Virus record (IMG/VR): IMGVR_UViG_3300045988_082442
Coordinates: 128,001 to 192,000 of that record
Strand: one strand, 5' to 3'
From: a virus
Length of the DNA stretch: 64,000 nt
Shown here: positions 3,798-21,328 of the stretch, in pieces
How positions within the stretch are numbered: position 1 is the stretch's first letter
How the letters are laid out: every line of letters starts with the position of its first letter
Notes under the pieces: model-generated
What the model was told of the DNA's origin: nothing
Database searches by the model: none
Seen by the model: the letters and a program-made list of their open reading frames with translations, nothing else
Program-made: the position numbers and the translations under genes

Positions 3798-3808
3798 TAG
3801 AACCAGAT

Positions 3809-3925: not shown

Positions 3926-3927
3926 AT

Positions 3928-4146
3928 ATGCAGACATTGAATAAAATATTAAAATTAAAAGAAGATACTTATAATAAACTATTACAATCAGGAATTACAG
4001 TTGATTTAGCAAAGCAAGCATCTGAACTAACATATCAAATAAATGTATTAAGTGCAACACCAGAAGATTTAAAGAATGATGCTAATCTAAAAGCAGAATT
4101 TGAAAGATTTTGTAGGGAGGCACAAAATGATGAAAATAGGGGATAG
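3928..4146 (+). CDS. hypothetical protein
   Basis: ORF track; RBS AGAGGG upstream. Confidence 0.6.
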   Translation: MQTLNKILKLKEDTYNKLLQSGITVDLAKQASELTYQINVLSATPEDLKNDANLKAEFERFCREAQNDENRG

Positions 4147-4312
4147 AATAATATCAGTAAGAACAGGTGAAACTGGTACTGTTGTTACAGGACCAGAAGA
4201 GATACTAGGTATAATAAATTACGGTATTGAGTTTGATAACCCAGAAGCAAGAAAGTTATTCAATCCATTTTATGTACCAGAAGAATTATTAGTAAGTTTA
4301 AAAGAATATTAG
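4127..4312 (+). CDS. hypothetical protein
   Basis: ORF-track frame. ATG at 4127 follows GGGAGG and overlaps the end of the previous gene. Confidence 0.55.
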   Translation: MMKIGDRIISVRTGETGTVVTGPEEILGIINYGIEFDNPEARKLFNPFYVPEELLVSLKEY

Positions 4313-4325
4313 GGGGGGTATTGTT

Positions 4326-4703
4326 ATGATAATAGAAACAACATTTAATGATAATGATTTCACACATATATTAGATGAATATTGGAGTAGGTTTAGATTT
4401 GTAAATTATTACTATGGACTAGATAGAATAGAAGACCCAGCAGTATATAGAGATGCAAGAATAGATATGGAAAGCTTAATTGAAAAAGCAGTGTATAATG
4501 ATTTAGACCAAGAAGAATCAAAAAGGTTTTTATTATATATTAAAACCAGCATATTGGAATTTATAAAGGATAACTATCGAGATGATTATATATATTTAAG
4601 TGATAATTTTAAAGTTGCAATTAAGAAGTCAGTAGAAGATAAAAATTATAATGGAGAAATAGTATATTATTTCTTAACTAATAATGTATATATAACTATG
4701 TAG
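4326..4703 (+). CDS. hypothetical protein
   Basis: ORF track; GGGGGG RBS upstream. Confidence 0.65.
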   Translation: MIIETTFNDNDFTHILDEYWSRFRFVNYYYGLDRIEDPAVYRDARIDMESLIEKAVYNDLDQEESKRFLLYIKTSILEFIKDNYRDDYIYLSDNFKVAIKKSVEDKNYNGEIVYYFLTNNVYITM

Positions 4704-4743
4704 ATGTTATACTTATTAGATAAATAATATTGGAGGTAGAAAA

Positions 4744-5916: not shown

Positions 5917-5917
5917 T

Positions 5918-6679
5918 ATGTATGGTTATATCTATTTAGTGCATGACAGTCTAAATAATAGACATTATATAGGACAACACAAATGGACAAAGTATGAATT
6001 ATTAGACGAAGATTACACAAGAGGGTCTGAAAAAGCATTTAGAGATTCCCATGGATTTGATTTATTTAAGATAGACCCAAATTATTTAGGTTCAGGAAAA
6101 CATTTACAAAATGCAATTAAAAAATATGGTAAGAATTATTTTTATATACAAGATATACTTGATATTGCAGAAACAAAACAGGAGTTGAATAAAAAAGAGA
6201 AAGAATGTATTAGACATTATAAATATGTATTAGGTTATAATCTATACAATATTAGTGAGGGTGGTGATGGAGGATATACTGGTAAAGATATTAGTGGTAA
6301 GAATAACCCAATGTATGGAAAACATCATACAGAAGAAACTAAACAGAAATTAAGAGAAATTATGAAATCTAAGGATTTTGAATATTTTAAAACAGACCCT
6401 AGATTTAGACATTATGGCAAAGATAATGGAATGTATGGTAAAAATCATACTGAAGAATCAAAGGAGAGAAACAGGAAAAAACATTTAGGAAAGAAAGTAT
6501 CTGATGAAACAAGAAATAAAATGAGAAAATCACATAACCCAAATAATATGCCCCCAAATCTACAAGGATATAGAGGAATGAATAATGGAATAATATATAC
6601 AAAAATACCACCAGATAAAATAGATAAATACTTGAGTGATGGTTGGAAGTTTGGAAGAATTAAAAAGGAGGATAAATAA
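5918..6679 (+). CDS. GIY-YIG homing endonuclease with NUMOD3-like repeats
   Basis: YGYIYLV..HYIGQH (GIY..YIG), YNISEGG, and two GK(N/D)NxMYGKxHTEE repeats. It sits between the two ligase fragments with overlapping stop and start codons. Confidence 0.8.
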   Translation: MYGYIYLVHDSLNNRHYIGQHKWTKYELLDEDYTRGSEKAFRDSHGFDLFKIDPNYLGSGKHLQNAIKKYGKNYFYIQDILDIAETKQELNKKEKECIRHYKYVLGYNLYNISEGGDGGYTGKDISGKNNPMYGKHHTEETKQKLREIMKSKDFEYFKTDPRFRHYGKDNGMYGKNHTEESKERNRKKHLGKKVSDETRNKMRKSHNPNNMPPNLQGYRGMNNGIIYTKIPPDKIDKYLSDGWKFGRIKKEDK

Positions 6680-7566
6680 TGAATAGATGTGTAAATTTAG
6701 AAGAGAGTGAATATTTACCTACACAATGCCCAGCCTGTGGACATAATTTGGAGTGGGTTGGTGTTGATTTAAAATGTGTAAACACAGAATGTCCACATAT
6801 AGCAGAGAGTGATTTGGAACAGTGGTGTACTATTGTAGGAGAAACAGATGGGTTAGCATGGGTAACAATGAAGCAATATTTAGATAAATTCAATATACAT
6901 AATACAGATGATTTATATAAGAATATAAATACAATGATAGCTACATTACAAGGTGGTAATGCTTCTATAACAGATAAAAAGATTGTAGAGTTTCTAAATA
7001 AGTTATATAAAGATATGATACCAGTAGAAAAAGCATTGATGGGATTAAATATACCAAGATTAAGTGAACAGACAGCAAAATTATTAAATAAAGAGAAAGA
7101 GTTAGTACATGATTTAATGACAATAGGTTCTCAATATACTACTGTAAAGGATAGAGATATGATTTCTATTCCAGATACATTAAAGAATAAACTATTAGGA
7201 TTAGTTAAAGAAGCAACAACAGAATCTATATTAAGTAATTTAGGAAAGTTGAACACACTACATTATTTATATGAACAAGATACACCTAGAATTATATTCA
7301 ATGACAATACTGATGAAATTATAAAGGTTGCTGTTACTGGCTCATTAGAGAGTATGAAAAGAAGTGCTTTTGAGAAGTATATACAAAGTTATGGATATGA
7401 ATTATCTAGTAGTATTAAATCTTGTAAATATTTAATAACTAATAATCCGAACAGTGGTTCAAGCAAGAATAAAGATGCCCAAAAATATGGTGTTGAAATC
7501 ATAACTGAAAAAGAATTTTTAGATAAATTAGGTAAGGTAACTACTAAATCTAATACATTGTTTTAA
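6679..7566 (+). CDS. ligA: NAD-dependent DNA ligase, C-terminal fragment (Zn finger, HhH, BRCT)
   Basis: CPACGHNL..CVNTECPH zinc-finger motif. BRCT-like VAVTGSL...YLITNNPNSGSSKNKDAQKYGVEIITEKEF. The ATG overlaps the TAA of the endonuclease gene. Confidence 0.8.
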   Translation: MNRCVNLEESEYLPTQCPACGHNLEWVGVDLKCVNTECPHIAESDLEQWCTIVGETDGLAWVTMKQYLDKFNIHNTDDLYKNINTMIATLQGGNASITDKKIVEFLNKLYKDMIPVEKALMGLNIPRLSEQTAKLLNKEKELVHDLMTIGSQYTTVKDRDMISIPDTLKNKLLGLVKEATTESILSNLGKLNTLHYLYEQDTPRIIFNDNTDEIIKVAVTGSLESMKRSAFEKYIQSYGYELSSSIKSCKYLITNNPNSGSSKNKDAQKYGVEIITEKEFLDKLGKVTTKSNTLF

Positions 7567-7576
7567 GGTATAAAGA

Positions 7577-7625
7577 GGGTTTTTACAAATTTATAACAAT
7601 TTTATAACAAATTTTGTAAAAACCC
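7577..7625 (+). terminator. long hairpin after ligA whose 3' arm abuts the next -35 box
   Basis: GGGTTTTTACAAA..TTTGTAAAAACCC. The loop carries the direct repeat TTTATAACAA twice. Confidence 0.55.
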
Positions 7626-7654
7626 TTGACATTTTTTAAAACTTATAATAATAT
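7626..7654 (+). promoter_or_regulatory. sigma-70-like promoter (family)
   Basis: TTGACA, 17 nt, TAATAT. Confidence 0.6.
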
Positions 7655-7681
7655 AAGCAAAGAGGTAGGAGGTGTAACACA

Positions 7682-10432
7682 ATGGGAAATTTATTTAATT
7701 TATTGAACAATCCACCTAAAAGTGAGTTACCAAAGTATTTGAAAGGAATTACAAAATCAGTTGATATTGAAAACTGTAGAACAATGGTAAATACATTTGT
7801 AGAAGGAGTTAATTTTACAGGGGATAAGTTAATTCAATATTGTATATCAAATAACATACCTTATTTTACAAGAGGTGAATATGATGTATTTACACTAGAA
7901 GAAGTTGAATATATAATAAATGATTTGAATACATTAAAAGCTTTAGAACTCGTTTTTGATGATTTTAAAAAGAAATTTCCAAAAAGACATATAGATATGT
8001 CATTAGAACAGTTTAAGAAGAAACTGTTAAAACTAGATTTAATAAAAGATGGAGAGGAGTTGAACAAATATATGAGGTACACAAATGATACAGTAGAGTA
8101 TGTCAGAAGATTAGGTACAGAACATACAATAGAAGAATGTTTGGAAATAATAAAAGTAGACAAACCTGAATTATCAATGACAGCAGATAGACTAAATGAG
8201 ATGAAGGATAGATACTTAATCAAATTTGTTAAAGATGAGGGGATGTTTACAGAATCACAGATTGAAATGATAAAAGTATTAGCAAGAACAGAAACAGTCA
8301 AAAATACATATTTAAGAATGAGAGAGTTATATGGAATACCATGTGGATACTTAGAGTTTATTGAACAAATAAGTAGATTAAAGGCATTATCAATATATAA
8401 CATTGGTACTATAACTACACATTTAACACCATTTGAAGAAGCATATATAGAGGAATTATTAGTTTCAGAAGATAGTAATGCTGTACTATATTCTAAATTT
8501 AATAAAGCATTTCCTAATAAATATCAATATCTACAATTTGTGAAATATTTAAACGAAATTAAAACATCAAAATACAGTAATAATGAAAGCACAAACAATG
8601 ATAAATATAAAGATTTAGAAAAACTTTTAGAATCATTTAAAGGGGAAAAGACAATACAAGAATGTTTAGATGAAGCACAGAAAGATGAAAGATTTAAAGA
8701 TTGTAATTATAAATCTATTTACAACTTTATACACAGAAGAAATATACCATTTAAACAAGCAAAAAAAGGAAGAGTAGCAGGTACAAAGAATATAGATAAA
8801 AAGGATAAGACAGTATCAAGAGCTAAGGGCAGAAAGAGCATACTAGATGATATTTATGATGATTTAGTTGAAACTTTAAGTAGGGTATCAATACCAAAAA
8901 CAATTATAGAATTAAAAGAAAGATATCCAGAGAAAGCAGATAGATTAAGTTATGGTTTAATAATGCACTATGCAAAAAATCATAATATTAAAACTAAAAA
9001 GGAGACACCAGAGGAAAGACAAGATAGAATGAATAAGATGAGAGGCATAAGGGGAACAAAGAAACAGGAACAGACACAATCAAAAGATGGTAAAGTAGAT
9101 GGTAGACAAGAATTGTCTAATAAGATTTATGATGACTTAAAATCATTGTGTAAAGATTATACAAAAATGGAATGCTTAAATATTATTCGTAAGAAATACA
9201 ATGTAGACTATACTGAGACTTATATACCAAATCTAATGAATAGAAAAGGAAAACTAAAATTTAAAGTATATACAGAGTTTACAGATGATATGAAAAAGAC
9301 AATAAGTGAATTAGAAGGAACAGTAGGAAATAAGGTAAATTTATATAGGAAATTTGCAAAAGTATATCCAGGTGCTGTGTCATTAAGACAATTTTGTAAT
9401 ATGTATAATGACATGGAAAAGGCATCAGAGGAAGATACAATACATAATACAGATACTATTGGGGTATCTGCAGATGAAATTGAAAGTAAACCTATTGTAG
9501 AACCAGTTACAGAACATATAGATACAATACCAGTTAAGGAAGAAGAGCATACTGAATTTGTTGAATCAATCCAACAAAAACAACCAGTACCTGTGGAAAA
9601 ATATCAACCAATAATAGATGAGGTAAATGCAACATTTGAAAGAAAATGTAGACAGTTAGGAGTATCAGAAGATACACATCAACATACAGATGAAATCATA
9701 AAAGCATTAGGTACTATTATACAATATGCAGATAGCAAGAAACTAAACAGAATATTAAATGACCATGAAGATATATTAGAGCAATATAGAAGAGAAGTGG
9801 AACATGAAATTGAAATAGAACCTTGGTCAGATGGTGATTCTTATTGTCATAATAAATTAAAAGCAATAGGAATGAGAAGAAGAGAAGTTAAATATGCTAG
9901 AGATGACATTAATGTAATGAAAGAATTACTTGACAATATAAATACTAATATTGAACTTTATAAAAAGACATTAGAAGATTTAGAGGAGAAAAAGTTACAA
10001 AGAGAGAACTCAATATTTATTCCATTGGTGGATTCATCAATGGTAGACAGACTAGATTGGTGTAAACATGCATCTTTAAGAAGCAAAAGAGCTTATACCC
10101 CAATACTAACAACTAATGCAAAGGAAGATAGAATAAAAAGATATAAAGCACAAGGAGACAGAGATTTATGGGTAGAAAAAGAACAGACACAACCTGTATT
10201 TCAAGATAATGTAAGTAAGTCAAATAAAAATTCCCATTTAAAATCAACATATAGAGTTAAGGCAGAATTTATGGTTTTAAAAGGAAACCCTTTTGTAAAT
10301 AAATATTATGATGTTGTAACAACTAATGAAGATTTAGCAAAGGACAAAGCAATAGAGTATTTTGACTTAATAAGCTCAAATAATAATAATGCAAAATATC
10401 AAATAGTATCTGTAACAAGATTAAATAGATAA
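7682..10432 (+). CDS. large hypothetical protein (916 aa) with repeated short helical modules
   Basis: ORF track; GGAGG RBS. Segments of the form ECL(E/D/N)..K...Y.....N recur at least four times. No catalytic motif recognised. Confidence 0.7.
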   Translation: MGNLFNLLNNPPKSELPKYLKGITKSVDIENCRTMVNTFVEGVNFTGDKLIQYCISNNIPYFTRGEYDVFTLEEVEYIINDLNTLKALELVFDDFKKKFPKRHIDMSLEQFKKKLLKLDLIKDGEELNKYMRYTNDTVEYVRRLGTEHTIEECLEIIKVDKPELSMTADRLNEMKDRYLIKFVKDEGMFTESQIEMIKVLARTETVKNTYLRMRELYGIPCGYLEFIEQISRLKALSIYNIGTITTHLTPFEEAYIEELLVSEDSNAVLYSKFNKAFPNKYQYLQFVKYLNEIKTSKYSNNESTNNDKYKDLEKLLESFKGEKTIQECLDEAQKDERFKDCNYKSIYNFIHRRNIPFKQAKKGRVAGTKNIDKKDKTVSRAKGRKSILDDIYDDLVETLSRVSIPKTIIELKERYPEKADRLSYGLIMHYAKNHNIKTKKETPEERQDRMNKMRGIRGTKKQEQTQSKDGKVDGRQELSNKIYDDLKSLCKDYTKMECLNIIRKKYNVDYTETYIPNLMNRKGKLKFKVYTEFTDDMKKTISELEGTVGNKVNLYRKFAKVYPGAVSLRQFCNMYNDMEKASEEDTIHNTDTIGVSADEIESKPIVEPVTEHIDTIPVKEEEHTEFVESIQQKQPVPVEKYQPIIDEVNATFERKCRQLGVSEDTHQHTDEIIKALGTIIQYADSKKLNRILNDHEDILEQYRREVEHEIEIEPWSDGDSYCHNKLKAIGMRRREVKYARDDINVMKELLDNINTNIELYKKTLEDLEEKKLQRENSIFIPLVDSSMVDRLDWCKHASLRSKRAYTPILTTNAKEDRIKRYKAQGDRDLWVEKEQTQPVFQDNVSKSNKNSHLKSTYRVKAEFMVLKGNPFVNKYYDVVTTNEDLAKDKAIEYFDLISSNNNNAKYQIVSVTRLNR

Positions 10433-10438
10433 TGTGAA

Positions 10439-10476
10439 TACATCTAACAGTACATATTTGTTAGATGTATATTTTA
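10439..10476 (+). terminator. intrinsic terminator
   Basis: TACATCTAAC..GTTAGATGTA followed by ATTTTAT. Confidence 0.6.
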
Positions 10477-10494
10477 TATATAGGAGGATTTAAT

Positions 10495-11289
10495 ATGGGA
10501 ATAGATTATAAAACAATAAGTCATGAATTACCAGACAATTTATTATGGCTGGAAGATAGAACAATATTACTAACAAAGGCAGGTTCATACATATATGGGA
10601 CAAACATAGAAACATCAGATACAGACTATAAAGGTGTTTGTATCCCACCAAAAGAATATTATTTAGGTTTAAAATCAATAAATGAATATAATAAATCTGG
10701 TGGTAAAAACTTTGGTGAAAGAAATACCAAAGATGATATAGATATAGTTGTATGTCATATAAATAAGTTTGTAAGAGATGCTATGAATGGTATTCCAAAT
10801 AATTTAGATATACTATTTTGTAGAGATGAGGATGTAATTTATATGGATGATTTTGGTAAGGAGTTAAGAGATTTTAGACATGAGTTCTTATCAAAAGAAG
10901 TATTCAAAAAGTTCTCAGGTTACGCTTTATCACAAAAACATAAAATAGAGACTAAAAAGAATCATGGAACTGGAAGAAGAGAATTAGTAGAAGAATTTGG
11001 GTATGACTGTAAATTTGCTTATCATGCTGTAAGACTAATATTAGGTGCAACAGAAATATTAGAAACACATGATTATCATTCATATAGACCAGAAAGGGAA
11101 TGGTTAGTAGAAATAAGAAAAGGTAAATATACACTAGAAGAAATATTTGATATAATAGAAGATTTAGATGCAAAACTAAAAAGTGCTTATGAAACAAGTA
11201 CATTAAGAGAAAAACCAGATTATCATAAAATAAATAAATGGCTAATAGGTTTAAATGAAAGAGCATTGAATTATGACTTTAAAAGGTAG
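10495..11289 (+). CDS. RlaP-like (RNA-repair-associated, pol-beta-fold) nucleotidyltransferase
   Basis: AGSYIYGTNIETSDTDYKGVCIPP resembles the GS..YG....SD.D..G signature of this family. ATG at 10495 after AGGAGG. Confidence 0.55.
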   Translation: MGIDYKTISHELPDNLLWLEDRTILLTKAGSYIYGTNIETSDTDYKGVCIPPKEYYLGLKSINEYNKSGGKNFGERNTKDDIDIVVCHINKFVRDAMNGIPNNLDILFCRDEDVIYMDDFGKELRDFRHEFLSKEVFKKFSGYALSQKHKIETKKNHGTGRRELVEEFGYDCKFAYHAVRLILGATEILETHDYHSYRPEREWLVEIRKGKYTLEEIFDIIEDLDAKLKSAYETSTLREKPDYHKINKWLIGLNERALNYDFKR

Positions 11290-11297
11290 TCAGCTGC

Positions 11298-11324
11298 CGT
11301 CAGGATTCCCTAGAAATGATTTTA
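11298..11324 (+). repeat. GC-rich conserved intergenic element, copy 1
   Basis: CGTCAGGATTCCCTAGAAATGATTTT is identical to 56975-57000 except for one base. Confidence 0.6.
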
Positions 11325-11388
11325 AATGTTTAGACATAAAATTATAAGGTTGTAAATAAAATAGTCTTAAATATTGTTCAAAAAATGC

Positions 11389-11417
11389 TTGACAAAACTT
11401 AAAACTTATAGTATATT
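11389..11417 (+). promoter_or_regulatory. sigma-70-like promoter (family)
   Basis: AAAATGCTTGACAAAACTTAAAACTTATAG then TATATT. Confidence 0.65.
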
Positions 11418-11445
11418 TATAGAAACGAAGGGAGATGGGTTTTAA

Positions 11446-12213
11446 ATGGGAAATTCAAGAATAAAAACATTAAGTGATAGAATGAAAGATTATGAGTTAG
11501 CATCTGATTACAGACTAACAAAGAAAACACCTGTAATAGTGAGAATAGATGGTAAATCATTTCACACCTTTACAAAAGGATTAGATAAACCTTTTGATAG
11601 TATATTATCAGAAGCAATGAACTATGTTTGTAGAAAATTAGTAGAAACAGTACAGGGCTGTAAGTTTGCATATACACAATCAGATGAGATAAGTTTATTA
11701 TTAACAGATTGGGATAAATCAACAACAGATTGTTATTTTGATTATAGGGTACAGAAAATGGTATCAGTATTAGCTTCAGCAGCAACTATGTATTTTAATC
11801 AGTATATAGTATCAAGAGTTTTATACTGGCAAAAAGGAGAGTCAGAATTATCAGAAAAGTTATTTGATAAATGGGCTGCAAAAGCTGGTTGTGCAATGTT
11901 TGATGCAAGAGCATATAATTTGCCAAAAGAAGAAGTATGTAATTACTTTATATGGAGACAAGAAGATGCAAGCAGAAATTCTATACAGTCATTAGGCAGA
12001 AGTAGATTTTCATTTAAGCAAATGTTAAATAAAAAGAACAATGAAGTACAAGATATGCTGTTTAATGAATATGGTATAAATTGGAATCGTATAGATACTA
12101 AATGGAAAAGAGGATTTGCAGTATGTAGAGATAAAGATGGTATAAAATCAGACTTTGAGATACCATTATTTAAAAAAGATAGAGCATTTATAGACAAATA
12201 TCTTATAGTATAA
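11446..12213 (+). CDS. Thg1-like protein (tRNA 3'-5' nucleotidyltransferase / tRNA-His guanylyltransferase family)
   Basis: VIVRIDGKSFHTFTKG and YTQSDEISLLL match the two conserved Thg1 catalytic segments. The size (255 aa) fits. Confidence 0.7.
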   Translation: MGNSRIKTLSDRMKDYELASDYRLTKKTPVIVRIDGKSFHTFTKGLDKPFDSILSEAMNYVCRKLVETVQGCKFAYTQSDEISLLLTDWDKSTTDCYFDYRVQKMVSVLASAATMYFNQYIVSRVLYWQKGESELSEKLFDKWAAKAGCAMFDARAYNLPKEEVCNYFIWRQEDASRNSIQSLGRSRFSFKQMLNKKNNEVQDMLFNEYGINWNRIDTKWKRGFAVCRDKDGIKSDFEIPLFKKDRAFIDKYLIV

Positions 12214-12242
12214 GATGTTTATAATGATGAAAGGATATAAAA

Positions 12243-12392
12243 ATGTTTATATGTGATAAATGTAGAACTTGTAGTAAGTTTCCATTTTGCACAGTAACAG
12301 AGAGTAAAGATGGAAATTGTGGTGAATATTCCAAAAGAAATATTTACAAGTTTATAGAAGATAAATTAAAAGATATTGAGAATAAGAGGTAG
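12243..12392 (+). CDS. small Cys-rich protein (49 aa)
   Basis: ATG..TAG ORF with CDKCRTC..C..C; fills a gap; below the track cutoff. Confidence 0.35.
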   Translation: MFICDKCRTCSKFPFCTVTESKDGNCGEYSKRNIYKFIEDKLKDIENKR

Positions 12393-12395
12393 AAC

Positions 12396-13013
12396 ATGCT
12401 TGAATTAGAGTTATATGGACGTTGTTATAAAAAGAATAACAATATAAAAATAAATAAAGGTATTACAGTTTTAACTGGACCAAATGGGTGTGGTAAATCT
12501 TATGCTTGTCAGCAAATAAGAGATTACCTAAAAGAAAATAATAAGAAAGTATATTTTGTAGATGTATATTCAGAGGGTAAAACTATATCACAACAATATT
12601 TAGAATATGGAGATATGGAATCATTAGCAAAGCATACAGTAGCATCAGAAGGTCAAAGAGTATTTGATACACTTATAGATAATCATGCATCAAAATTAGG
12701 GGAATTTGTTAGACAACTAATAGATAATAACCTAAAAGAAGGATATATAATTATAGATGGTGCTGATAGTGGTGTTAGTATTGATTTAATGATGTCATTG
12801 AGAAGTTTATTTAGTATGATAGAAGAGGATTGTGTAGACAGTGGAATAGATATATACATAATTATAACTTCAAATAGTTTTGAATTATGTAGAAATTACG
12901 ACTGTATCTGGATACCTACAATGGAACATTATAAAAGAGGAGATGAAGCAGATGCCTATGATTTGTGGAGACACCAATATGAAAAAATCTACAAAGAAAG
13001 AAACAAGAAATAA
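12396..13013 (+). CDS. P-loop ATPase (ABC/AAA-like, small)
   Basis: Walker A GPNGCGKS and Walker-B-like YIIIDGADSG. Confidence 0.65.
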   Translation: MLELELYGRCYKKNNNIKINKGITVLTGPNGCGKSYACQQIRDYLKENNKKVYFVDVYSEGKTISQQYLEYGDMESLAKHTVASEGQRVFDTLIDNHASKLGEFVRQLIDNNLKEGYIIIDGADSGVSIDLMMSLRSLFSMIEEDCVDSGIDIYIIITSNSFELCRNYDCIWIPTMEHYKRGDEADAYDLWRHQYEKIYKERNKK

Positions 13014-13269
13014 GATTGTAGAAGAATATAAAAGAATATACAGTAGAAAGTATAGAAGAGCTCATTATAAGAGTAAATGGGTATTACAATCTGGTAATCA
13101 ACTAGCAGAAGAAGATTTTAAATCTTGGTGTCAAGAATCAAAAGTTATAATGAGAAAGCATAAAGTTGGATTAATTACTGATGATGATATGTTGGGGTAT
13201 ATAAATAAATGGATAGAACAAGATGTTAAGATAAAAGAAGAAATAGATATACTTGCTTTGAGCAAGTAA
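12978..13269 (+). CDS. basic hypothetical protein
   Basis: ORF-track frame 12880-13269. ATG at 12978 after GGAGA is preferred. It overlaps the end of the ATPase gene. Confidence 0.5.
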
Positions 13270-13278
13270 TAGATATAA

Positions 13279-13315
13279 GGGTAATTTTATAACCCTTGCA
13301 GGAAACTGCGAACTA
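13279..13315 (+). promoter_or_regulatory. conserved double-hairpin leader motif, copy C
   Basis: GGGTAATTTTATAACCC TT GCAGGAAACTGC GAACT, 10 nt after a stop codon. Confidence 0.7.
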
Positions 13316-13334
13316 TTTTTAATAGATATAAAAG
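13316..13334 (+). repeat. strongly truncated CRISPR-repeat remnant
   Basis: TTTTTAATAGATATAAAAG keeps the repeat's 5' end and its terminal AAAG. It is followed by the palindrome AAAAGCTTTT and a T-run. Confidence 0.3.
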
Positions 13335-13390
13335 CTTTTTTCGATACCCCAATTTATAAGATAAATAAAACAGAATAGAGGTAGGAAGTT

Positions 13391-15859
13391 ATGAGAAATT
13401 TAGTAGTATTAAGAGGATGCCCAGGTGCAGGGAAATCAACTTGGATAAAAGAAAATGGTTTAGAGCCTTATACATTATGTCCAGATACAATAAGGACAAT
13501 GGTAAGTGCTCCAGTATATACAGAAGAACATGATACTGAGATGACTATATCTCAGCAAAATGAAACTTATACATGGAATTTATTATTTGAATTACTTGAA
13601 AATAGAATGAAGAATGGTGATTTTACAGTAATAGATGCAACACATAGCAGGTCATCAGATTTTAGTAGATATAACGATTTATGTTCTACATATAGATATA
13701 GAAGATATACTGTATCATTTACAGATGTACCAGAAGAAGTATGTAAACAAAGAAATCTGGAAAGAGATGCCTATAAACAGGTACCACCTGAAGTTATAGA
13801 AAAGATGTATGCTAGATTTGCAACACAAAATAAAACAAGTGGATGGACAGAAATTCCAAGAGATAAATTCTGGGAAGTATTTAGTAATAAAGTGTTTGAT
13901 TTTAATAAGTATGAAAAAGTTCATATATTTGGTGATATTCATGGATGTTATGACCCACTAGAACAATATATAGTAGATAGCTATAATGGAGATGATGTAC
14001 ATGAAGATTTAAGCCCAGAAACATTAAAGAATTTATTAAATAAAGATGAGGCTTATATATTTGTAGGTGATTACTTAGATAGAGGATTACAAAATAAAGA
14101 AGTTTTAAAATTTATGATTTCAATATGTCAATTAGATAATGTTTTATGCTTAGAGGGAAATCACGAAAGATATTTATGGTATTGGGCTAATGAACAAGAT
14201 AATGAAATAAGAAGTAAAGAGTTCTTTAATCATACAGTACCACAAATAAGAGGTATATCTCCATCTGATATAAGACAATTTTATAGAAAATTAGGACAAA
14301 TGGCATTATTTACATTTAATAATGAAACATATTTTGTAACACATGGTGGATTATCATTATTACCAGAACACTTACCATTAGTATCAACAAATTGTCTAAT
14401 AAATGGTACAGGAAGATTTAAGTTTCCAATAGATGAAAGATATACAGAAAATATGCAAGGTAAAAATGTATTACAAGTACATGGTCATAGAAATATGGAA
14501 TGTGATTATAAAGGAAAACTACCTTTATCATTCTCACTAGAAGATAGAGTTGAGTTTGGTGGTAATTTTGTAGTATTAGAAATAAATGAGAAAGGTAATT
14601 ACTTCCATAGAATAAAGAATGATACATTTAGGGAACCTGATTATGACAATAAAGAAGAAGAAATAATACCAGCATTTGATATGACAATGGACAATATTGT
14701 AGAAAGAATGAGATTGAATAAGAACATAAAAGAAACAGTGCTACCAGATGGTATATCATCTTTTAACTTTACTAGACAAGCATTTGAAAAAGATAGATGG
14801 AACTCAGAAACAGTTAAAGCAAGGGGATTATTTATAGATACTGAAAACAATAAAATAGTTGCAAGAGGATATGAGAAGTTCTTTAATATAAATGAACAAG
14901 AAAACTGTAAATTATTTAATCTAAAATCATTATTTAATACAGGATTACCTGTAATTGCATATAAGAAGTATAATGGATTTTTAGGAATATTAAGTTATTA
15001 TCATGATGAGTTAAAATTCCATTCAAAATCTACTAATATAGGTGATTATGCAAACTACTTTAAAGACCTATTTTATAAAAGATTTACTGACAAACAAATA
15101 GATATGATTACAGATTATTTAAAGAATAATAATGTATCAATGGTATTTGAAGTTATAGACATAGACAATGACCCACATATCATAGAAGAAAAAGAAAGCA
15201 GAGTAGTTTTATTAGATATAATCAGAAATGAAGTAGAGTTTAGCAGATTACCTTATGACCAGTTATTACTTTTAGCAAACTTATGGGGAATAAAAGAAGA
15301 TGGTGTAAAACAAATATATAAAGAATTTACATCATACAGAGAGTTGACTGAGTTCTATGAAATACATAAAGATGATAAAAACTTTAATGATATTGATATA
15401 GAAGGAGTTGTAATAGAATGTGGTAACTTTATGACAAAGCTTAAATTTAATTATTATAGATTCTGGAAGGGTATGAGAAGTGTTGCAGAAAAATTACAAA
15501 GTGGAAGAGATAATGTAAAATTAAGTATGTTATACAATGCAACTGCAAACTATTTCTATAAGTTTGTAAAAGATATGGTAGAAGAAAAACAGTTAGAACT
15601 TCTAAAAATAAAAGATACATTAGGATTGGGAGATATAAATGCTGGTGATTTAAGAAGAGCAGAATTAGACTTTGAAAATAATATGATTACAATTCATAAA
15701 AGAGATAGAAGAGCTTATTATATAGGAAATGATATTACAGCAGAAAATGTTATTACAGCAACAACAACCCCAGAAATAATGAACAAACTATCAGAACTAC
15801 AAAAATCAAAGGATATAATAACATTAAGAAACGAATATTATAGAAATGGTGGTGTTTAA
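13391..15859 (+). CDS. pnkp: polynucleotide kinase-phosphatase-ligase (bacterial Pnkp-type RNA repair enzyme)
   Basis: N-terminal P-loop GCPGAGKST. Central calcineurin-type motifs GDIHGC, GDYLDRG, GNHE and VHGH. C-terminal nucleotidyltransferase motifs KKYNGF (I), MVFEV (III), IEGVVI (IV) and KLKF (V). Confidence 0.8.
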   Translation: MRNLVVLRGCPGAGKSTWIKENGLEPYTLCPDTIRTMVSAPVYTEEHDTEMTISQQNETYTWNLLFELLENRMKNGDFTVIDATHSRSSDFSRYNDLCSTYRYRRYTVSFTDVPEEVCKQRNLERDAYKQVPPEVIEKMYARFATQNKTSGWTEIPRDKFWEVFSNKVFDFNKYEKVHIFGDIHGCYDPLEQYIVDSYNGDDVHEDLSPETLKNLLNKDEAYIFVGDYLDRGLQNKEVLKFMISICQLDNVLCLEGNHERYLWYWANEQDNEIRSKEFFNHTVPQIRGISPSDIRQFYRKLGQMALFTFNNETYFVTHGGLSLLPEHLPLVSTNCLINGTGRFKFPIDERYTENMQGKNVLQVHGHRNMECDYKGKLPLSFSLEDRVEFGGNFVVLEINEKGNYFHRIKNDTFREPDYDNKEEEIIPAFDMTMDNIVERMRLNKNIKETVLPDGISSFNFTRQAFEKDRWNSETVKARGLFIDTENNKIVARGYEKFFNINEQENCKLFNLKSLFNTGLPVIAYKKYNGFLGILSYYHDELKFHSKSTNIGDYANYFKDLFYKRFTDKQIDMITDYLKNNNVSMVFEVIDIDNDPHIIEEKESRVVLLDIIRNEVEFSRLPYDQLLLLANLWGIKEDGVKQIYKEFTSYRELTEFYEIHKDDKNFNDIDIEGVVIECGNFMTKLKFNYYRFWKGMRSVAEKLQSGRDNVKLSMLYNATANYFYKFVKDMVEEKQLELLKIKDTLGLGDINAGDLRRAELDFENNMITIHKRDRRAYYIGNDITAENVITATTTPEIMNKLSELQKSKDIITLRNEYYRNGGV

Positions 15860-15860
15860 T

Positions 15861-16076
15861 ATGGGGTTAATAGGATACTATATATCTAACCTATTGTGTA
15901 ATATACTTATACTAGCAATGGTTGTAGTGGTGTTGATTATTTCAATACCACTTGCAGTTATAATATCATTATGTGAGGTTGTAGGTACATTAGGTATATT
16001 CCTAAATAAGTTATTAGATAGCCTTATTCAGAAAACAGATAATTTAATAAAAGTATTAAAAACAAAGGAGAATTAG
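15861..16076 (+). CDS. small membrane protein
   Basis: Two hydrophobic stretches. ATG at 15861 lies within the track ORF. Confidence 0.5.
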   Translation: MGLIGYYISNLLCNILILAMVVVVLIISIPLAVIISLCEVVGTLGIFLNKLLDSLIQKTDNLIKVLKTKEN

Positions 16077-16078
16077 AA

Positions 16079-16258
16079 ATGGAAGATTGGTTAAATAGAA
16101 TTGTAAAATGTCCATGGTGTAAGCAAGATGTTAGAGATGGTGATAGAATTTGGTTAGATGGGGAATGCCTATGTCCAGAATGCTATCAGCATAAAAGACA
16201 GAAATATGATGACTTAAAAAGAAGTGGTTATGAACAAGCAAAGAAAGAATCAAGGTAA
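16079..16258 (+). CDS. zinc-ribbon protein (59 aa)
   Basis: CPWC...CPEC. ATG 2 nt downstream of the upstream stop codon. Just below the track cutoff. Confidence 0.45.
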   Translation: MEDWLNRIVKCPWCKQDVRDGDRIWLDGECLCPECYQHKRQKYDDLKRSGYEQAKKESR

Positions 16259-16275
16259 TACAGAGGAGTGATATT

Positions 16276-16815
16276 ATGTTTATAGGAAAAGAGTTAAGAA
16301 GTGTAAAAACTGGAAAACAAATATTAGTACCATTTTGTAATGAATGTAATTCACAGAATATAGAAACTATACAAGTATGTCGTAACTGTGGCTCGCATAA
16401 TATAAAGGTAGACTGGCAAGATGATAGAAGCATAAAAGATGAATATGAGGATAGATGTGCTTATATCTATAAATGTGATTCATGTGGGGAAGAATATGAT
16501 GGATTACAACATGCTAATGTTATATCTTATTCAACAGGTGAATTTATAAGTGGGGAATCTGAATATTCAGAAAAGAAATACAGCATGAAGAGAGATTTAT
16601 GTCCAAAGTGTACTAAAATGCTTATCAACACATTAAATGCTAGAATAGAAGAAATTATAGATGAGGATAATGTTATGAATATAGCAGATAATATCACAGA
16701 TAAAACAGAAACTAAAGAAAGTGAACAATGTCAAACCTGTGCAAAATATGAATATTGCACAATGAGAAAAGATAAAGAGTTCTGTTATGAATATGATAGA
16801 GAGGGTGATTTATAA
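16276..16815 (+). CDS. multi-zinc-ribbon protein
   Basis: CNEC..CRNC, CDSC, CPKC and CQTC pairs. Confidence 0.6.
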   Translation: MFIGKELRSVKTGKQILVPFCNECNSQNIETIQVCRNCGSHNIKVDWQDDRSIKDEYEDRCAYIYKCDSCGEEYDGLQHANVISYSTGEFISGESEYSEKKYSMKRDLCPKCTKMLINTLNARIEEIIDEDNVMNIADNITDKTETKESEQCQTCAKYEYCTMRKDKEFCYEYDREGDL

Positions 16816-17186
16816 TGAGTTTTGCAGTAACTGGTTTGACACATTGTTCTAGTTGTGGAACACCATTAGGCATGAACGAATATGGATATTGTGCAAGTTG
16901 TCAGGAAAAGATAGATAAACAAAAAGAAAAGGATAAAAAACAACATGAGAAAGATATGTTTAAAGCAGAAATTTTAGGCGAGGTTAAAGAAGTTCTAAAC
17001 AAGAACATATTAGATGAATTAGCTAAAATGAGAGGTACTATAAATGAGATGAATATACCAACTAGAAAACCAGATGATATAGATTGGGATAGATGGTATG
17101 CAGATATTGGGCAACAGGTAGTATCAGAATCATTAAAAGGTAATAAATGTATCTTAGTAAATTTTATCAATAATAAAAATAAATAA
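16815..17186 (+). CDS. zinc-ribbon protein
   Basis: CSSC...CASC; start overlaps the upstream stop. Confidence 0.6.
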   Translation: MSFAVTGLTHCSSCGTPLGMNEYGYCASCQEKIDKQKEKDKKQHEKDMFKAEILGEVKEVLNKNILDELAKMRGTINEMNIPTRKPDDIDWDRWYADIGQQVVSESLKGNKCILVNFINNKNK

Positions 17187-17195
17187 TAAATATAA

Positions 17196-17235
17196 GGATA
17201 ATTTTACAATCCTTACAGGAAACTGTGAACTGTGT
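17196..17235 (+). promoter_or_regulatory. conserved double-hairpin leader motif, copy D
   Basis: GGATAATTTTACAATCC TT ACAGGAAACTGT GAACTGTGT, 8 nt upstream of array 2. Both stems carry compensatory changes relative to copies A-C. Confidence 0.75.
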
Positions 17236-17243
17236 AATTTAAT

Positions 17244-17665
17244 ATCCTATAGCTATATAAAATGACACAGATGTGAAAGTATTGCAACATTAAAATACCC
17301 TATTTTTGGGGTTTTATGGCTATATAAAATAACACAGATGTGAAAGAGGGATTTTGTTTTGTTAGCATTTATTTCTGTTTTATAGCTATATAAAATGACA
17401 CAGATGTGAAAGTCTGGAACAAATCTTGAAAAGTCCAGCTTTGTTTTATGGCTATATAAAATAACACAGGTGTGAAATAATTCAAAGTATTGTTCAAATA
17501 GTTTCTGTGTTTTATAGTTATATAAAATGACACAGATGTGAAAGGAATACTAAAATAAAGTAGCAATTGAGCTAGTTCTATAGCTATATAAAATGACACA
17601 GATATGAAAGTTAAGCTCATGAATGATAGCAACAATAGTTTTATAGATATATAAGAAGCAGAAAG
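17244..17665 (+). CRISPR. CRISPR array 2: seven repeats (last one degenerate), six spacers of 27-31 nt
   Basis: Repeats at 17244, 17311, 17377, 17443, 17509, 17575 and 17638, with a 66-67-nt period. Consensus is GTTTTATAGCTATATAAAATGACACAGATGTGAAAG (36 nt). All spacers are unique. Confidence 0.9.
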
Positions 17666-17676
17666 GAGAAAATTAA

Positions 17677-18111
17677 ATGAAAGAAAGATTAATATGTGAT
17701 TTAAAGGAAGCAATGAAGAATAAAGATGTAATTGCTAAAAATACAATACAAAGTATTAGGGCTTCTATACTACAGTATGAAAAAGATAATCATACAGAAG
17801 CAACTAATAAACAAATAGAGGATATATTGGTTAAAGAAAGGAAGAAAAGAGTAGATGCATTAGAACAATTCCAAAAAGCAAATAGGGAAGATTTAATACA
17901 TCAAACAGAAATGGAAATACAAATAATAGAGGGATATTTACCAGAGCAAATGTCAGAAGAAGAAATAAGAGAAAGACTATCTGAAACAATATCTCAAATG
18001 AATGCTGATAAATCAATGTTTGGACAAATAATGAAAATGGCAAAAGAAGAATTTGGAAATACAGCAGATGGTAAGACACTTAGTACAATATTGAAAGAAT
18101 TATTAAACTAA
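17677..18111 (+). CDS. GatB/YqeY-domain protein
   Basis: End-to-end resemblance to YqeY: L..DLKEAMK.KD, ...ILVKERKKR..., IIEGYLP, GQIMK...G.ADGK. Confidence 0.7.
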   Translation: MKERLICDLKEAMKNKDVIAKNTIQSIRASILQYEKDNHTEATNKQIEDILVKERKKRVDALEQFQKANREDLIHQTEMEIQIIEGYLPEQMSEEEIRERLSETISQMNADKSMFGQIMKMAKEEFGNTADGKTLSTILKELLN

Positions 18112-18133
18112 TAAATATTGAGGGGGTTAAATA

Positions 18134-19057
18134 ATGAGTGAAGATGCAGTAAGTAAGATGAGGGATATAATGGATAGATTTGCAAAAATTTATACACCAG
18201 AATATCTAGCAGAATTAAGCTTAAGGAGTTATATAGAAGATAGAGAATATCCAGAAAACTTCTCAAACTGGTACCCACATATATTAAATTTTGGAAAATT
18301 TAGTAATGCAGAGGTTATATCTAATCAAATATTGACACATGGGCAAGTAGAAATATTACAAGAAACAGATGATATAAACAATGTAAATTGGGATAAATGT
18401 GCAGAAGTATTTAAACCTACATTGGATGTAATGAAACCAAATGTAATATATAGTATAAAGAATGGTTGCTTTTCAAATAAGTTTGACTTTGAAACCTGTG
18501 TTACAGATAAGAGAGACTTTGTAGAGAAAATGTGGAAAATAAATTATGCATCATCAATGTTTGAAACAGGTGGATATACAGAAGTAGTAGTTAGAAAATA
18601 TATACCATCAGACCCAAGTAAGTATTTAACTATATATAATGGTATGCCTTTAAGAACAGAGGTTAGAGTATTTTATAATATGATAACAAAGAAAATAGAA
18701 TACATAAAAGATTACTGGGATTATGATTACTGTGTTGACAATATACATAACTTAACAGATAAAGTAGCCTTTAACTATTTTCATAATAAAATGGCTATGA
18801 GTAGTGATTTGGTTATAAATCTTTTTAGACATGAGGCAGAACTAGATAAAGTAAAAGATTTCATAATAGACAATATTGAAACATTAAGATTTGATGGGGA
18901 GCTAGGTAAGATAGAACCTATATGGAGTATTGACTTTATGTATGATGCTGATACAGAAGATGTTTATTTAATTGATATGGCAAGAGGGTTTAGGTCAGCA
19001 TATTGGGATGTAAATCTATTAAGTAAAGAAACACAGGAGGAATTACAAAAGAGGTAG
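18134..19057 (+). CDS. possible ATP-grasp-fold enzyme
   Basis: TEVRVFY and IWSIDFMYD..DVYLIDMA resemble ATP-grasp C-terminal strands. Weak, by eye only. Confidence 0.35.
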   Translation: MSEDAVSKMRDIMDRFAKIYTPEYLAELSLRSYIEDREYPENFSNWYPHILNFGKFSNAEVISNQILTHGQVEILQETDDINNVNWDKCAEVFKPTLDVMKPNVIYSIKNGCFSNKFDFETCVTDKRDFVEKMWKINYASSMFETGGYTEVVVRKYIPSDPSKYLTIYNGMPLRTEVRVFYNMITKKIEYIKDYWDYDYCVDNIHNLTDKVAFNYFHNKMAMSSDLVINLFRHEAELDKVKDFIIDNIETLRFDGELGKIEPIWSIDFMYDADTEDVYLIDMARGFRSAYWDVNLLSKETQEELQKR

Positions 19058-19086
19058 AATAATATACTAAAATGGAGGTAATTTAT

Positions 19087-20088
19087 ATGAGTAAGGGTAT
19101 TGAAGAAAGTAAAAGTATTGAAGAAGTAAAAGATACTAGAGATAACAGAAAGTCTAAAATAAATATGACAAAACTGTTAGGCAGTATTAGTGGAATTAAG
19201 GTAAATCAAAACAGGAGTGAGAAAGTTTCAGTTTATAGAATTACTGGGAAAGATGGTAAAAAGGTGATTTTATCATCAAGACAGCTAGTTTCAAATAGCA
19301 TATCTAAGTTTAAAGAAACTTATTCTTATTTTTGGAGTAAGTTAGCTGAGTATGGACCTAAAGAATTTAAGGCAGAGGTTATAGCAGAATTTCCAGCAAA
19401 GTATCCAGATAGTGATACAAAAAATGTAAGAGGTATAAAAAGTAGGATAGAAAAGATTATCTGGGATGAATTAGCATTTTATAATTTAAATCCCAATTAT
19501 GTTGTAAGGGGGAGCAACAGAACTGGTTATACACCCCTATTTATTAGTGTTGTAAATTATCACAAAACAGATATGCAAGAAGAGTCTAAGGTTATAGCAG
19601 ATAAAGCAGGTATAAGTGAATCTGAGATAAGTTTAATAGTAAATGGTAAAAAGGGTAATTGTCAACCTATGGAACTTATATCAAATAATGGTAACATACC
19701 TTATTGTTATATAAAAACAGCGTTAAATAATACCAAATCTAGTGAGGTAGATAATAATGCAGATAGTACTGAGGTTATAAATGCTAGTAATGAAGCAGAT
19801 ATTAAAATAAGTCAGACACCAGATAAGTTTATATATGAGGTTAAAGATGGTGCAATATCTGAATATAGGGTATTAAATAAAAAACAATGTACCTTATATT
19901 ATTTAGATAGACCATTAAATGGAAAAACAATATTAGAGGAAGATAAGATATTAGAAAATGCTTTATTATTTACAAATAGGGAAGAAGCTGAGAATATGTT
20001 AAATAATCAAATTGATGAATTTAATAAAAGAATAAGTGGTTTGCCAAGGTGGTTTGTAAAGAAAGCATTATCAAAGGAGGAAAACTAA
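19087..20088 (+). CDS. hypothetical protein
   Basis: Track frame; ATG at 19087 is 7 nt after GGAGGT. Confidence 0.65.
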   Translation: MSKGIEESKSIEEVKDTRDNRKSKINMTKLLGSISGIKVNQNRSEKVSVYRITGKDGKKVILSSRQLVSNSISKFKETYSYFWSKLAEYGPKEFKAEVIAEFPAKYPDSDTKNVRGIKSRIEKIIWDELAFYNLNPNYVVRGSNRTGYTPLFISVVNYHKTDMQEESKVIADKAGISESEISLIVNGKKGNCQPMELISNNGNIPYCYIKTALNNTKSSEVDNNADSTEVINASNEADIKISQTPDKFIYEVKDGAISEYRVLNKKQCTLYYLDRPLNGKTILEEDKILENALLFTNREEAENMLNNQIDEFNKRISGLPRWFVKKALSKEEN

Positions 20089-20823: not shown

Positions 20824-21273
20824 ATGGGGATGTATGATACAATAAACCCTGCATTAGCAAAAAGAATAATAACACATTGTCCTATTTGTGATAAGTACCT
20901 ATATAATAGTGATGATGTAGAATGGCAAACAAAATGTTTTAGTAATATTTTAAAAGAAATAAATTTAGAGGATATACATCGTGATACATTTGAAATGCAT
21001 GTAATATGCCCTAATTGTAATCAATATTTTAGTATAGACGTAAATTTAAAAGAAGGTAATTTTACTGCACAGAGTAACTTTGATTTTGATGTAGGGGATA
21101 CCTATATTAGACCTTTTGAAGATACATCTTTAACATCAGATTATATAGTTTTAAAAAGTCAAAGGCTATTCAATAATGGTATTAAAGAATGGCTAGAGTT
21201 AAATTCAGTAGATATATGTGATATGGAAGGATTTTATATTATACCTAAATCAGTATTAAATAAAAATGCTTGA
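20824..21273 (+). CDS. zinc-ribbon protein
   Basis: CPICDK ... CPNC. Confidence 0.6.
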   Translation: MGMYDTINPALAKRIITHCPICDKYLYNSDDVEWQTKCFSNILKEINLEDIHRDTFEMHVICPNCNQYFSIDVNLKEGNFTAQSNFDFDVGDTYIRPFEDTSLTSDYIVLKSQRLFNNGIKEWLELNSVDICDMEGFYIIPKSVLNKNA

Positions 21274-21328
21274 CAGAAAAATACTTGACAAAAAAATGCT
21301 TGACATAATATCAAATTTATTATATAAT
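21270..21328 (+). promoter_or_regulatory. promoter with three tandem TTGACA boxes
   Basis: TTGACA at 21270, 21285 and 21300. Only the third is 17 nt from TATAAT (21323-21328). Confidence 0.6.

Follow-up and report, generated by a model that had tools for sequence, protein, structure and literature searches.

A second CRISPR array in a jumbo phage, probably one of several leader-headed cassettes of a compact type V-like system

The stretch analysed here, positions 128,001 to 192,000 of the IMG/VR virus record IMGVR_UViG_3300045988_082442 (64,000 nucleotides (nt); called the window below), contains on its + strand a CRISPR array, which is called array 2. A first array (array 1) and the gene of a TnpB-derived, Cas12-like effector lie near the start of the window. 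At a probability of roughly 80%, array 2 is a working (functional or recently functional) CRISPR array and one of several self-contained cassettes of a compact phage type V-like system. The locus contains the following features.

16815–17186, + strand: upstream open reading frame (ORF) of 123 amino acids (aa), with weak zinc-ribbon/treble-clef matches.
17194–17214, + strand: leader hairpin 1 of array 2, a 6-bp stem (AAGGAT/ATCCTT) with a conserved 9-nt loop, AATTTTACA.
17215–17226, + strand: leader hairpin 2 of array 2, ACAG-GAAA-CTGT, a 4-bp stem with a GNRA tetraloop.
17230–17240, + strand: leader tail of array 2, CTGTGTAATTT, complementary to repeat positions 17–27; candidate built-in anti-repeat.
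17244–17673, + strand: array 2, repeats R1–R6, degenerate repeat R7 and spacers S1–S6.
17413–17442, + strand: spacer S3, the sole array 2 spacer with an identified target.
17677–18111, + strand: YqeY-like gene (Pfam YqeY PF09424, E = 4e-35), whose ribosome-binding site lies inside R7.

The six good repeats, 36 nt each, are located at 17244–17279, 17311–17346, 17377–17412, 17443–17478, 17509–17544 and 17575–17610, with start-to-start spacings of 67, 66, 66, 66 and 66 nt, and R7 is at 17638–17673. The spacers are all unique and occupy 17280–17310, 17347–17376, 17413–17442, 17479–17508, 17545–17574 and 17611–17637 (31, 30, 30, 30, 30 and 27 nt). A 23-nt repeat core is found seven times in the window with up to 3 mismatches (<=3), against 0.00 expected from shuffled sequences. 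These facts confirm what a sequence-only reading of this DNA had described, seven repeats of 36 nt, the last of them degenerate, with a period of 66–67 and six unique spacers. The placement between a zinc-ribbon gene and a YqeY-like gene is likewise borne out by the ORF matches. The distance of 14 kb to the effector holds for the 3' end of the effector gene (14.2 kb); the distance from array 2 to array 1 is 16.3 kb.

The sequence GAAAGGAG lies within R7, 5' of the YqeY start codon (ATG at 17677). The last repeat had been proposed to double as the ribosome-binding site of YqeY. The overlap is real in the sequence, but it is dispensable: a related strain on a 216.5-kb contig (L012) lacks both that repeat and the 5' two-thirds of YqeY. 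Alignment of L012 3694–3900 with window 17575–18000 places the junction between its last repeat and the middle of YqeY at window ~17980.

Strain comparison shows that the spacers change. The array 2 leader of L012 is identical base for base to that of the window. Its array shares S1 (minus one T) and S3, lacks S2 and S4–S6, and carries two other spacers. Short-read contigs break at array 2. Array 1 is wholly different among three strain types, whose effectors fall within one 90%-identity cluster. The window-type array 1 is also present in L061 and L062. In L058, the array 1 locus bears the leader and repeat of the window's array 2 type with two other spacers, so the repeat variant is not bound to a locus, and in L060 the same locus has a third leader variant and five other spacers. 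Conservation of the spacers across relatives, named in the sequence-only reading as evidence against an array, was not found; the spacers differ in L012, L058 and L060. Judging from these sequences, the leader-plus-array units appear to behave as exchangeable cassettes.

Spacer S3 finds a foreign phage gene. Its protospacer is identical at 29 of 30 positions on a 17-kb contig and on a 498.6-kb metagenome contig (L027, L029), and at 27 of 30 in L026 and L028. The target gene encodes a DUF2800/PD-(D/E)XK exonuclease (Pfam E = 4e-161; PHROG 69) and is part of a phage replication module with a Gp2.5-like single-stranded DNA-binding protein, a DNA polymerase A, a D5-type primase-helicase, an SNF2 helicase and a ParB-methyltransferase. 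Relatives of the target are present in 45–54-kb IMG/VR phages, with 3–4 mismatches to the spacer. The target seems to belong to another phage or prophage.

The second spacer of array 1 (1022–1051) matches a tRNA-Tyr(GTA) gene at 29 of 30 positions. This gene is part of a tRNA-Met/tRNA-Tyr pair on four contigs of Clostridia metagenome-assembled genomes (L022–L025). The phage's own tRNA-Tyr (779–864) differs from the spacer at four positions, 1, 2, 17 and 18. The spacer is seen only in the window-type strain. The phage may target the tRNA-Tyr gene of its host while supplying a resistant copy. The 5' flank of the S3 protospacer is CC(C/T/G); the longer flanks are TCCY for S3 and ACCG for the tRNA-Tyr target, with CC at −3/−2 in both, and a 5' CCN-like protospacer adjacent motif (PAM) is possible.

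The other five array 2 spacers have no match in GenBank phages or PLSDB; the spacer search proposed earlier yielded a foreign target for S3 and none for the rest. Array 2 as a whole gives only chance-level matches against GenBank phages (E >= 0.5), and eight further spacers have no match there. Exact scans of IMG/VR returned no match for S1, S3, L012-X1 or three more spacers, nor for the repeat. Local BLAST of all 62 spacers against the loci examined gave nothing convincing besides S3 and the tRNA-Tyr spacer.

Array 2 is A/T-rich, intergenic and small, and lies directly upstream of a gene whose ribosome-binding site it overlaps, as could also be expected of a phage regulatory or replication repeat (iterons or a structured untranslated region (UTR)) that merely resembles an array. 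Such an element does not account for unique spacers of fixed length that are swapped between strains while the repeats are kept, for one spacer matching a foreign phage gene and another a bacterial tRNA gene, or for the co-occurrence of the arrays with a Cas12-fold protein. Because of the strain comparison and the protospacers, a non-CRISPR origin of the repeats is effectively refuted.

The leader of array 2 is the same as that of array 1, as had been claimed, and the differences between the repeats of the two arrays are real. Fifteen leader copies from five phage lineages were aligned (in 3 copies, 1 nt between the hairpins was removed for column register). Their general form is a 6-bp stem with the loop AAUUUUAYA and an adjacent 4-bp stem with a mostly GNRA tetraloop. 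Hairpin 1 is 96.7% paired, with compensatory changes in 5 of 6 pairs, and hairpin 2 is 100% paired, with compensatory changes in 3 of 4. Its stems in other copies are GCAG/CUGY, ACGC/GCGU, GCGC/GCGC and ACGG/CCGU. For both hairpins together (98% paired, 8/10 pairs compensatory), none of 500 shuffles reaches the signal, and slid controls remain at or below 45%. A G.U pair at leader pair 5:17 in nine copies fits RNA of the + strand. The leaders often start 1–5 nt after the 3' end of a tRNA.

Downstream of the hairpins, the 11-nt leader tail covaries with the repeat of its own array. Over nine distinct combinations, the tail and the repeat are 84.8% paired with five compensatory pairs; 0 of 500 shuffles reach this, and slid controls are at most 51%. 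Examples are CTGTGT with ACACAG in the window, TATGTAATTT with AAATTACATA in L001, TATGTAAAAT with ATTTTACATA in L003-A, and TATATAAT with ATTATATA at the solo repeat of L001. The leader tail of L060 adds a 12/13 match to its own repeat. This suggests that the tail could be an anti-repeat resembling that of a trans-activating CRISPR RNA (tracrRNA), built into each array. A search for a separate tracrRNA anti-repeat elsewhere in the window gave chance-level matches only. The minimum free energy (MFE) fold of 17196–17310 includes the tail-repeat duplex of array 2. MFE folds of leader and repeat are only weakly better than shuffles (z about −2 or worse), and because they are weakly informative, covariation is what the structural claims are based on, not energy. 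Rfam at gathering thresholds reported tRNAs only and matched no known CRISPR-DR or leader family.

The repeats themselves were compared in a gap-free alignment of 45 distinct variants. The terminal stem, columns 2–12 with 25–35, is 81.6% paired with four compensatory pairs, which 0 of 500 shuffles reach, and slid controls do not exceed 59%. The sequence-only reading had instead proposed a small covarying palindrome (columns 23–26 with 29–32). This survives only weakly: it is 61.7% paired over the 45 variants and closes only in R1 of array 1, the only repeat there that reads TACAGGTGTA, R2 and R3 having a C.A mismatch. It cannot form a hairpin, because arms of 4 + 4 leave a 2-nt loop. Two other foldings were rejected. 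A hairpin in the 5' half (columns 2–8 with 13–19) is 73.3% paired, shows no covariation and is no better than shuffles, and an internal 3' hairpin (columns 18–23 with 27–32) fits the L007/L008 variants only, with 69% paired overall.

Array 2 is not the only array of this kind. The other features of the window that belong to the system, and the corresponding loci of the four other lineages examined, are as follows.

869–1144, + strand: array 1 with its leader (hairpin 1 at 869–889, hairpin 2 at 890–901; repeats at 920, 986 and 1052; degenerate repeat at ~1108–1144).
1202–3007, + strand: gene of the effector, a 601-aa TnpB-derived Cas12-like protein with RuvC residues D286, E400 and D527.
3017–3200, + strand: decayed third array, with an intact leader at 3017–3049 followed by degenerate repeat remnants, directly after the effector stop codon.
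13277–13309, + strand: orphan two-hairpin leader with no repeats, upstream of the Pnkp/RNA-ligase gene.
L003: effector 49% identical; three arrays, one 5 kb upstream of the gene and one directly on each side of it (upstream and downstream).
L001 (195-kb contig): effector 44% identical, truncated ORF; five arrays and a solo repeat, spread over 10 kb and interleaved with 19 tRNA genes.
L007: effector 34% identical; arrays on both sides of the gene.
L008: effector 42% identical, truncated ORF; arrays on both sides of the gene.

Array 1 begins 5 nt after tRNA-Tyr, and the effector gene is directly downstream of it. In each of the four other lineages, down to an effector identity of 34%, the effector homolog has arrays with related 36-nt repeats flanking it or nearby. 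Each array has its own repeat variant. An array right after the effector stop codon is universal in the family: it is decayed in the window, and L001, L003, L007 and L008 hold an intact array at this position. Two arrays with distinct repeats had been considered unusual for such a small system. On the contrary, they are the norm of the family, with 2–5 arrays per relative, often among tRNA genes. What stands of the sequence-only reading as a whole is that array 2 belongs to the same system as array 1, shares its leader and has a diverged repeat; the points on the palindrome, the oddity of two arrays and the ribosome-binding site were revised. In L007 and L008, YqeY is directly upstream of the effector or of the effector's array.

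The effector has been named only "hypothetical protein" in any source. It has no Pfam family at E <= 0.01 and no match at E <= 1 in a sequence search of the PDB, scores 17 bits against NCBIfam guided_TnpB (cut-off 100), and gives only partial matches in PADLOC (Cas12f, 4e-7; Cas12u3, 6e-6). A search of a 5.8-billion-sequence collection found relatives in only eight clusters. An exhaustive profile search of 1.8 billion representative proteins found ~14 full-length clusters of the family at 50% identity, below which the scores drop sharply to TnpB-like proteins of ~500 aa, aligned at positions ~250–540 only (E ~1e-32 over positions 249–538). By tblastn, IS200/IS605 TnpB genes in Clostridium phages are 32% identical to residues 247–477 (E = 6e-19). 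The effector is thereby homologous to TnpB in the WED/RuvC core.

An AlphaFold model built from 49 sequences has a predicted local distance difference test (pLDDT) score of 88.5 and a predicted template modelling (pTM) score of 0.84. It supersedes a first model from 8 sequences, which was poor in the RuvC half (pLDDT 65). All the best Foldseek matches have the Cas12/TnpB fold at ~10% identity, with probability 1.00 for Cas12m2, Cas12f and TnpB. For Cas12m2, E is 1.5e-10 and the template modelling (TM) score 0.49; normalised to the target, the TM score is 0.59 for AsCas12f and 0.62–0.63 for TnpB (ISDra2 TnpB, 0.63). Further fold matches are Cas12p, LaTranC and Fanzor2. The motifs GIDLGTET, HIENNK and LQRDLYAAAK provide the intact triad D286/E400/D527, and no CxxC zinc finger was found in the protein. 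The effector is a TnpB-derived Cas12-like protein outside every solved or curated subtype. The lineage appears new. Casdelta was rejected as its identity, being 867–936 aa. ORF calling splits the effector in two in L001 (10001–11831; 476 + 153 aa) and in L008 (1217–2984; 351 + 182 aa). Pseudogenisation, a programmed frameshift or an assembly error could account for this; the surrounding arrays look intact.

The window is ~90% coding on the + strand. Its genes include a portal protein, a homing endonuclease, an NAD-dependent DNA ligase, a Pnkp/RNA-ligase fusion and five tRNA genes. Megablast of window positions 1–20000 against GenBank phages gave no match. In exact-protein look-ups the same genes were found on contigs of 210,066, 213,644 and 216,533 bp from human-associated metagenomes. 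Since these genes sit on contigs of 210–217 kb, the virus is taken as a jumbo phage (~215 kb). Its host is probably a gut member of the Clostridia, because a spacer matches Clostridia tRNA genes and the nearest TnpB relatives are in Clostridium phages.

Several observations weigh against a working array. A target is identified for only one of the six array 2 spacers, and the PAM is derived from only two independent protospacers, the S3 flank lying within conserved coding sequence. A PADLOC scan of 59 window ORFs found no Cas1, Cas2 or Cas4, with ~150 kb of the phage genome outside the window. A sigma-70 scan predicted no promoter upstream of array 2, the count of promoter-like sequences being below the shuffle mean. 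The array is worn: the 5' end of R1 is degenerate (ATCC, not GTTT), and point changes are present in each of R2, R4, R5 and R6. The spacers that L012 and the window have in common, S1 and S3, are leader-proximal and the differing ones distal, the reverse of textbook polarised acquisition; because the common spacers lie nearest the leader, spacers may turn over by recombination and not by polarised acquisition. The repeat stem has 39 G.U pairs and 29 A.C mismatches, a balance that does not settle the transcribed strand. The register of the tail/repeat pairing was picked by eye in A/T-rich sequence, for which reason this pairing is a good lead, not proof. In an alignment of 16 full-length members of the effector family, the RuvC-I residue is D in 7/16 and N in 8/16, and the RuvC-II residue is D in 7/16, the RuvC-III Asp being invariant. 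Given these substitutions, a part of the family is possibly non-cleaving, and a subclade may bind DNA without cutting it.

Part of this evidence would suit a decaying orphan, an array that was once functional and is now the 5' UTR of YqeY, giving no guides. The degenerate first and last repeats, the point changes in four internal repeats, the lack of adaptation genes in the window and of a predicted promoter, the clearly decayed array at 3017–3200 of the same genome, and the deletion that runs from array 2 into YqeY in one strain all agree with it. Set against this, strains have a perfectly conserved leader, whose structure is also kept across lineages, and S3 retains a 29/30 match to a live target family. 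Near-identical strains differ beyond simple loss, as L012 has two spacers that the window lacks. The changes in the repeats largely keep pairing, as when A8G leaves a G.U pair. Decay of array 2 to an orphan is therefore judged unlikely.

The geometry of 36-nt repeats and 30-nt spacers and the repeat start GTTTTAG(A/T)(A/G)C appear to resemble type II-A repeats. The arrays might then serve a Cas protein of the host (e.g., type II), either as guides that redirect it against rivals or as decoys that sequester it as RNA anti-CRISPRs. Agreeing with this are a related three-repeat mini-array on Enterococcus faecium plasmids with no effector annotated nearby, and the solo repeat units at window 447–469 and at L001 5905. 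For huge phages whose repeats are host-like, use of host Cas proteins has been proposed (PMC7162821). The arrays, however, flank the TnpB-like effector in every lineage, including a position right after the stop codon like that of the TnpB omega-RNA, each has a covarying leader tail, and no Cas9-style tracrRNA anti-repeat is found in the window. Service to a host Cas protein thus seems slightly less probable still than decay.

For a working array 2, the following mechanism can be proposed. Each cassette would consist of a two-hairpin leader whose tail is complementary to the centre of its own repeat, 36-nt repeats with pairable ends, and spacers of ~30 nt. It would be transcribed on the + strand, and array 2 most likely by read-through from the upstream operon, since no sigma-70 promoter is predicted upstream and the intrinsic-terminator scan predicted none in the array 2 region, including between the zinc-ribbon ORF and the array. 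The transcript would be processed into CRISPR RNAs (crRNAs). These would guide the 601-aa nuclease, whose RuvC triad is intact, to double-stranded DNA, possibly next to a 5' CCN-like PAM, where it would cleave. The targets would be competitors and the host: the exonuclease gene of another phage or prophage for S3, and the Clostridia tRNA-Tyr for spacer 2 of array 1. As no Cas1, Cas2 or Cas4 is found in the window, and none is present among the precomputed Pfam matches in the loci of the relatives, new spacers would have to come from the adaptation machinery of the host or from recombination of whole leader-plus-array cassettes.

It can be speculated further that every array is self-sufficient, its leader being a mini tracrRNA-like scaffold of two hairpins and a 10–13-nt anti-repeat that co-evolves and travels with its own repeat variant, a living intermediate between the TnpB omega-RNA and CRISPR. 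The cassettes would have spread through the tRNA cluster of the phage, where tRNA-processing enzymes could help to release them, and would be aimed at rivals and the host tRNA-Tyr, for which the phage would bring a mismatched tRNA-Tyr. This fuller scheme is tentative and, taken as a whole, rather doubtful.

Phage CRISPR systems usually lack adaptation genes, and such systems that target rival elements and host genes have precedent (PMC7162821; bioRxiv 10.64898/2026.04.20.719267). Miniature type V systems of phages include Cas12j/CasPhi of huge phages (PMC7162821), CasLambda (PMC12141684) and Cas12r of Thermus Lalka phages (bioRxiv 10.64898/2026.04.20.719267), and arrays of huge phages have a median of six repeats (PMC7162821). 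The present system resembles CasPhi, CasLambda and Cas12r in having a single compact RuvC effector on a phage, short arrays, spacers against rival elements and sometimes host genes, and no Cas1, Cas2 or Cas4 (here, none found in the window). As with Cas12r, a TnpB branch was recruited separately to give the effector, and an array directly follows the gene. It differs from all three in that the effector has no detectable sequence relationship to theirs, CasLambda being only a weak fold match, and in having 2–5 dispersed arrays per genome, with their own repeat variants and a two-hairpin leader with a repeat-matched tail. For Cas12r, the array is single, its repeats are 29 nt long, and an extra RNA was not detected (bioRxiv 10.64898/2026.04.20.719267).

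In the TranC clades, Cas12f and Cas12n, the guide is thought to have been split from the transposon right-end RNA, and an anti-repeat RNA lies between the gene and the array on the same strand (bioRxiv 10.64898/2026.03.27.714800). Shared with these systems are a small TnpB-derived effector with an expanded N-terminal half, 32–38-nt repeats and few repeats per array; some of them are from gut Clostridia or phages, and the position of their anti-repeat RNA is that of the leader here. LaTranC and Cas12f are only remote fold matches to the effector (~10–12% identity). Unlike in TranC, Cas12f and Cas12n, the candidate anti-repeat element here is ~50 nt with 10–13 bp of complementarity, is fused to every array and has been copied to distant loci.

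IS200/IS605 TnpB is the closest sequence relative of the effector, and in both a guide-encoding element starts right after the stop codon. The effector has ~250 extra N-terminal residues and no CxxC zinc finger, unlike this TnpB. The guides come from multi-spacer, strain-variable arrays instead of one fixed guide at a transposon end, and this speaks against a classical TnpB element. A transposase (TnpA) or transposon ends were not seen, and no search aimed at them was made. Mini-CRISPR arrays and solitary repeat units carried by viruses have been connected with conflicts between mobile elements, usually through a host effector and mimicry of host repeats (PMC11656645). Small arrays and solo repeat units are present in the window as well, but this genome also codes for a dedicated effector, whose presence co-varies with that of the arrays.

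The system is thus of a known kind, a phage-encoded miniature type V without adaptation genes, and stands beside the TnpB-to-Cas12 intermediates (TranC). What appears new is the dispersal of 2–5 arrays per genome through the tRNA region, the two-hairpin leader with a repeat-matched tail, and the pairing of a spacer directed at a host tRNA-Tyr with a mismatched phage tRNA-Tyr. The family to which the effector belongs is very rare and unrelated in sequence to every solved Cas12, and with 601 aa and an intact triad the effector is a candidate compact genome-editing enzyme. The architecture, with a putative anti-repeat fused to each array and covarying with it, bears on how CRISPR arrays, with tracrRNAs or lacking them, arose from TnpB guide RNAs. 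Here a human-gut jumbo phage carries strain-variable guides against another phage's replication module and against a host tRNA gene for which it brings its own replacement. This broadens the view that CRISPR serves huge phages in eliminating competitors and in gaining control of translation.

Some further observations concern the leaders, tRNAs and promoters. The two-hairpin leader is also present without a working array, at 13277–13309 and at 3017–3049, with nothing but repeat remnants and a T-run hairpin after the latter, and one copy of L003 lies just before the effector start codon (9928–9960). The leader may have a role besides heading arrays. Window 357–489 holds an odd tRNA (ARAGORN 'tRNA-???', 90 nt, with a two-base anticodon call). 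Right after it comes the 3' half of a repeat at 447–469, TAAAAATGACACAGATGTAAAAG, and ~20 nt past this half repeat tRNA-Trp starts at 490. This crRNA-like unit between two tRNAs could be freed by tRNA-processing enzymes. L001 has a similar solo repeat with its own leader at 5905, after tRNA-Leu. L007 (3855–4215) and L008 (3829–4181) encode a transfer-messenger RNA (tmRNA; tag ANEELVAA) with 17 tRNA genes just downstream of the effector and arrays. The motif AAAAATGCTTGACAA, with a TATAAT-like hexamer ~17 nt later, is seen at window 3262–3300, 21262–21305 (in tandem) and 38492–38521 and at ~12200 of L003. It looks like a phage sigma-70-type early promoter and was not found before either array.

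Two spacers at array 1 loci have unusual relationships. The last spacer of array 1, 20 nt at window 1088–1107 (TGGATAATATGTTCTGAATT), is matched at 19/20 positions in L003 9888–9907, where it is likewise the final spacer of the array upstream of the effector. The effector of L003 is only 49% identical, and two closer strains lack this spacer. In L003, a part of this spacer is repeated in inverted orientation a few bases downstream (AATAATATGTT...AACATATTATT). The conserved 20-nt spacer could be a guide with a regulatory function or a trace left by phages exchanging cassettes. In L060, the first spacer of array 1 (2637–2666, ACCATAATCCATAAGGATAATTTTACAATC) largely copies the end of the upstream tRNA and leader hairpin 1, and the next interval is only 8 nt, which suggests recombination or aberrant duplication inside the cassette.

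The mini-array of E. faecium, on conjugative plasmids, has three copies of a related 36-nt repeat (GTTTTAGAACCATGTAAAACAACACAGTTCTCAAAT) and 30-nt spacers. It is located at L064 2437–2600, corresponding to NZ_CP018130.1 66573–66736, and adjoins an IS66 element. It also matched 33 further Enterococcus plasmid records and 9 staphylococcal-type records, and the repeat family may extend beyond these phages.

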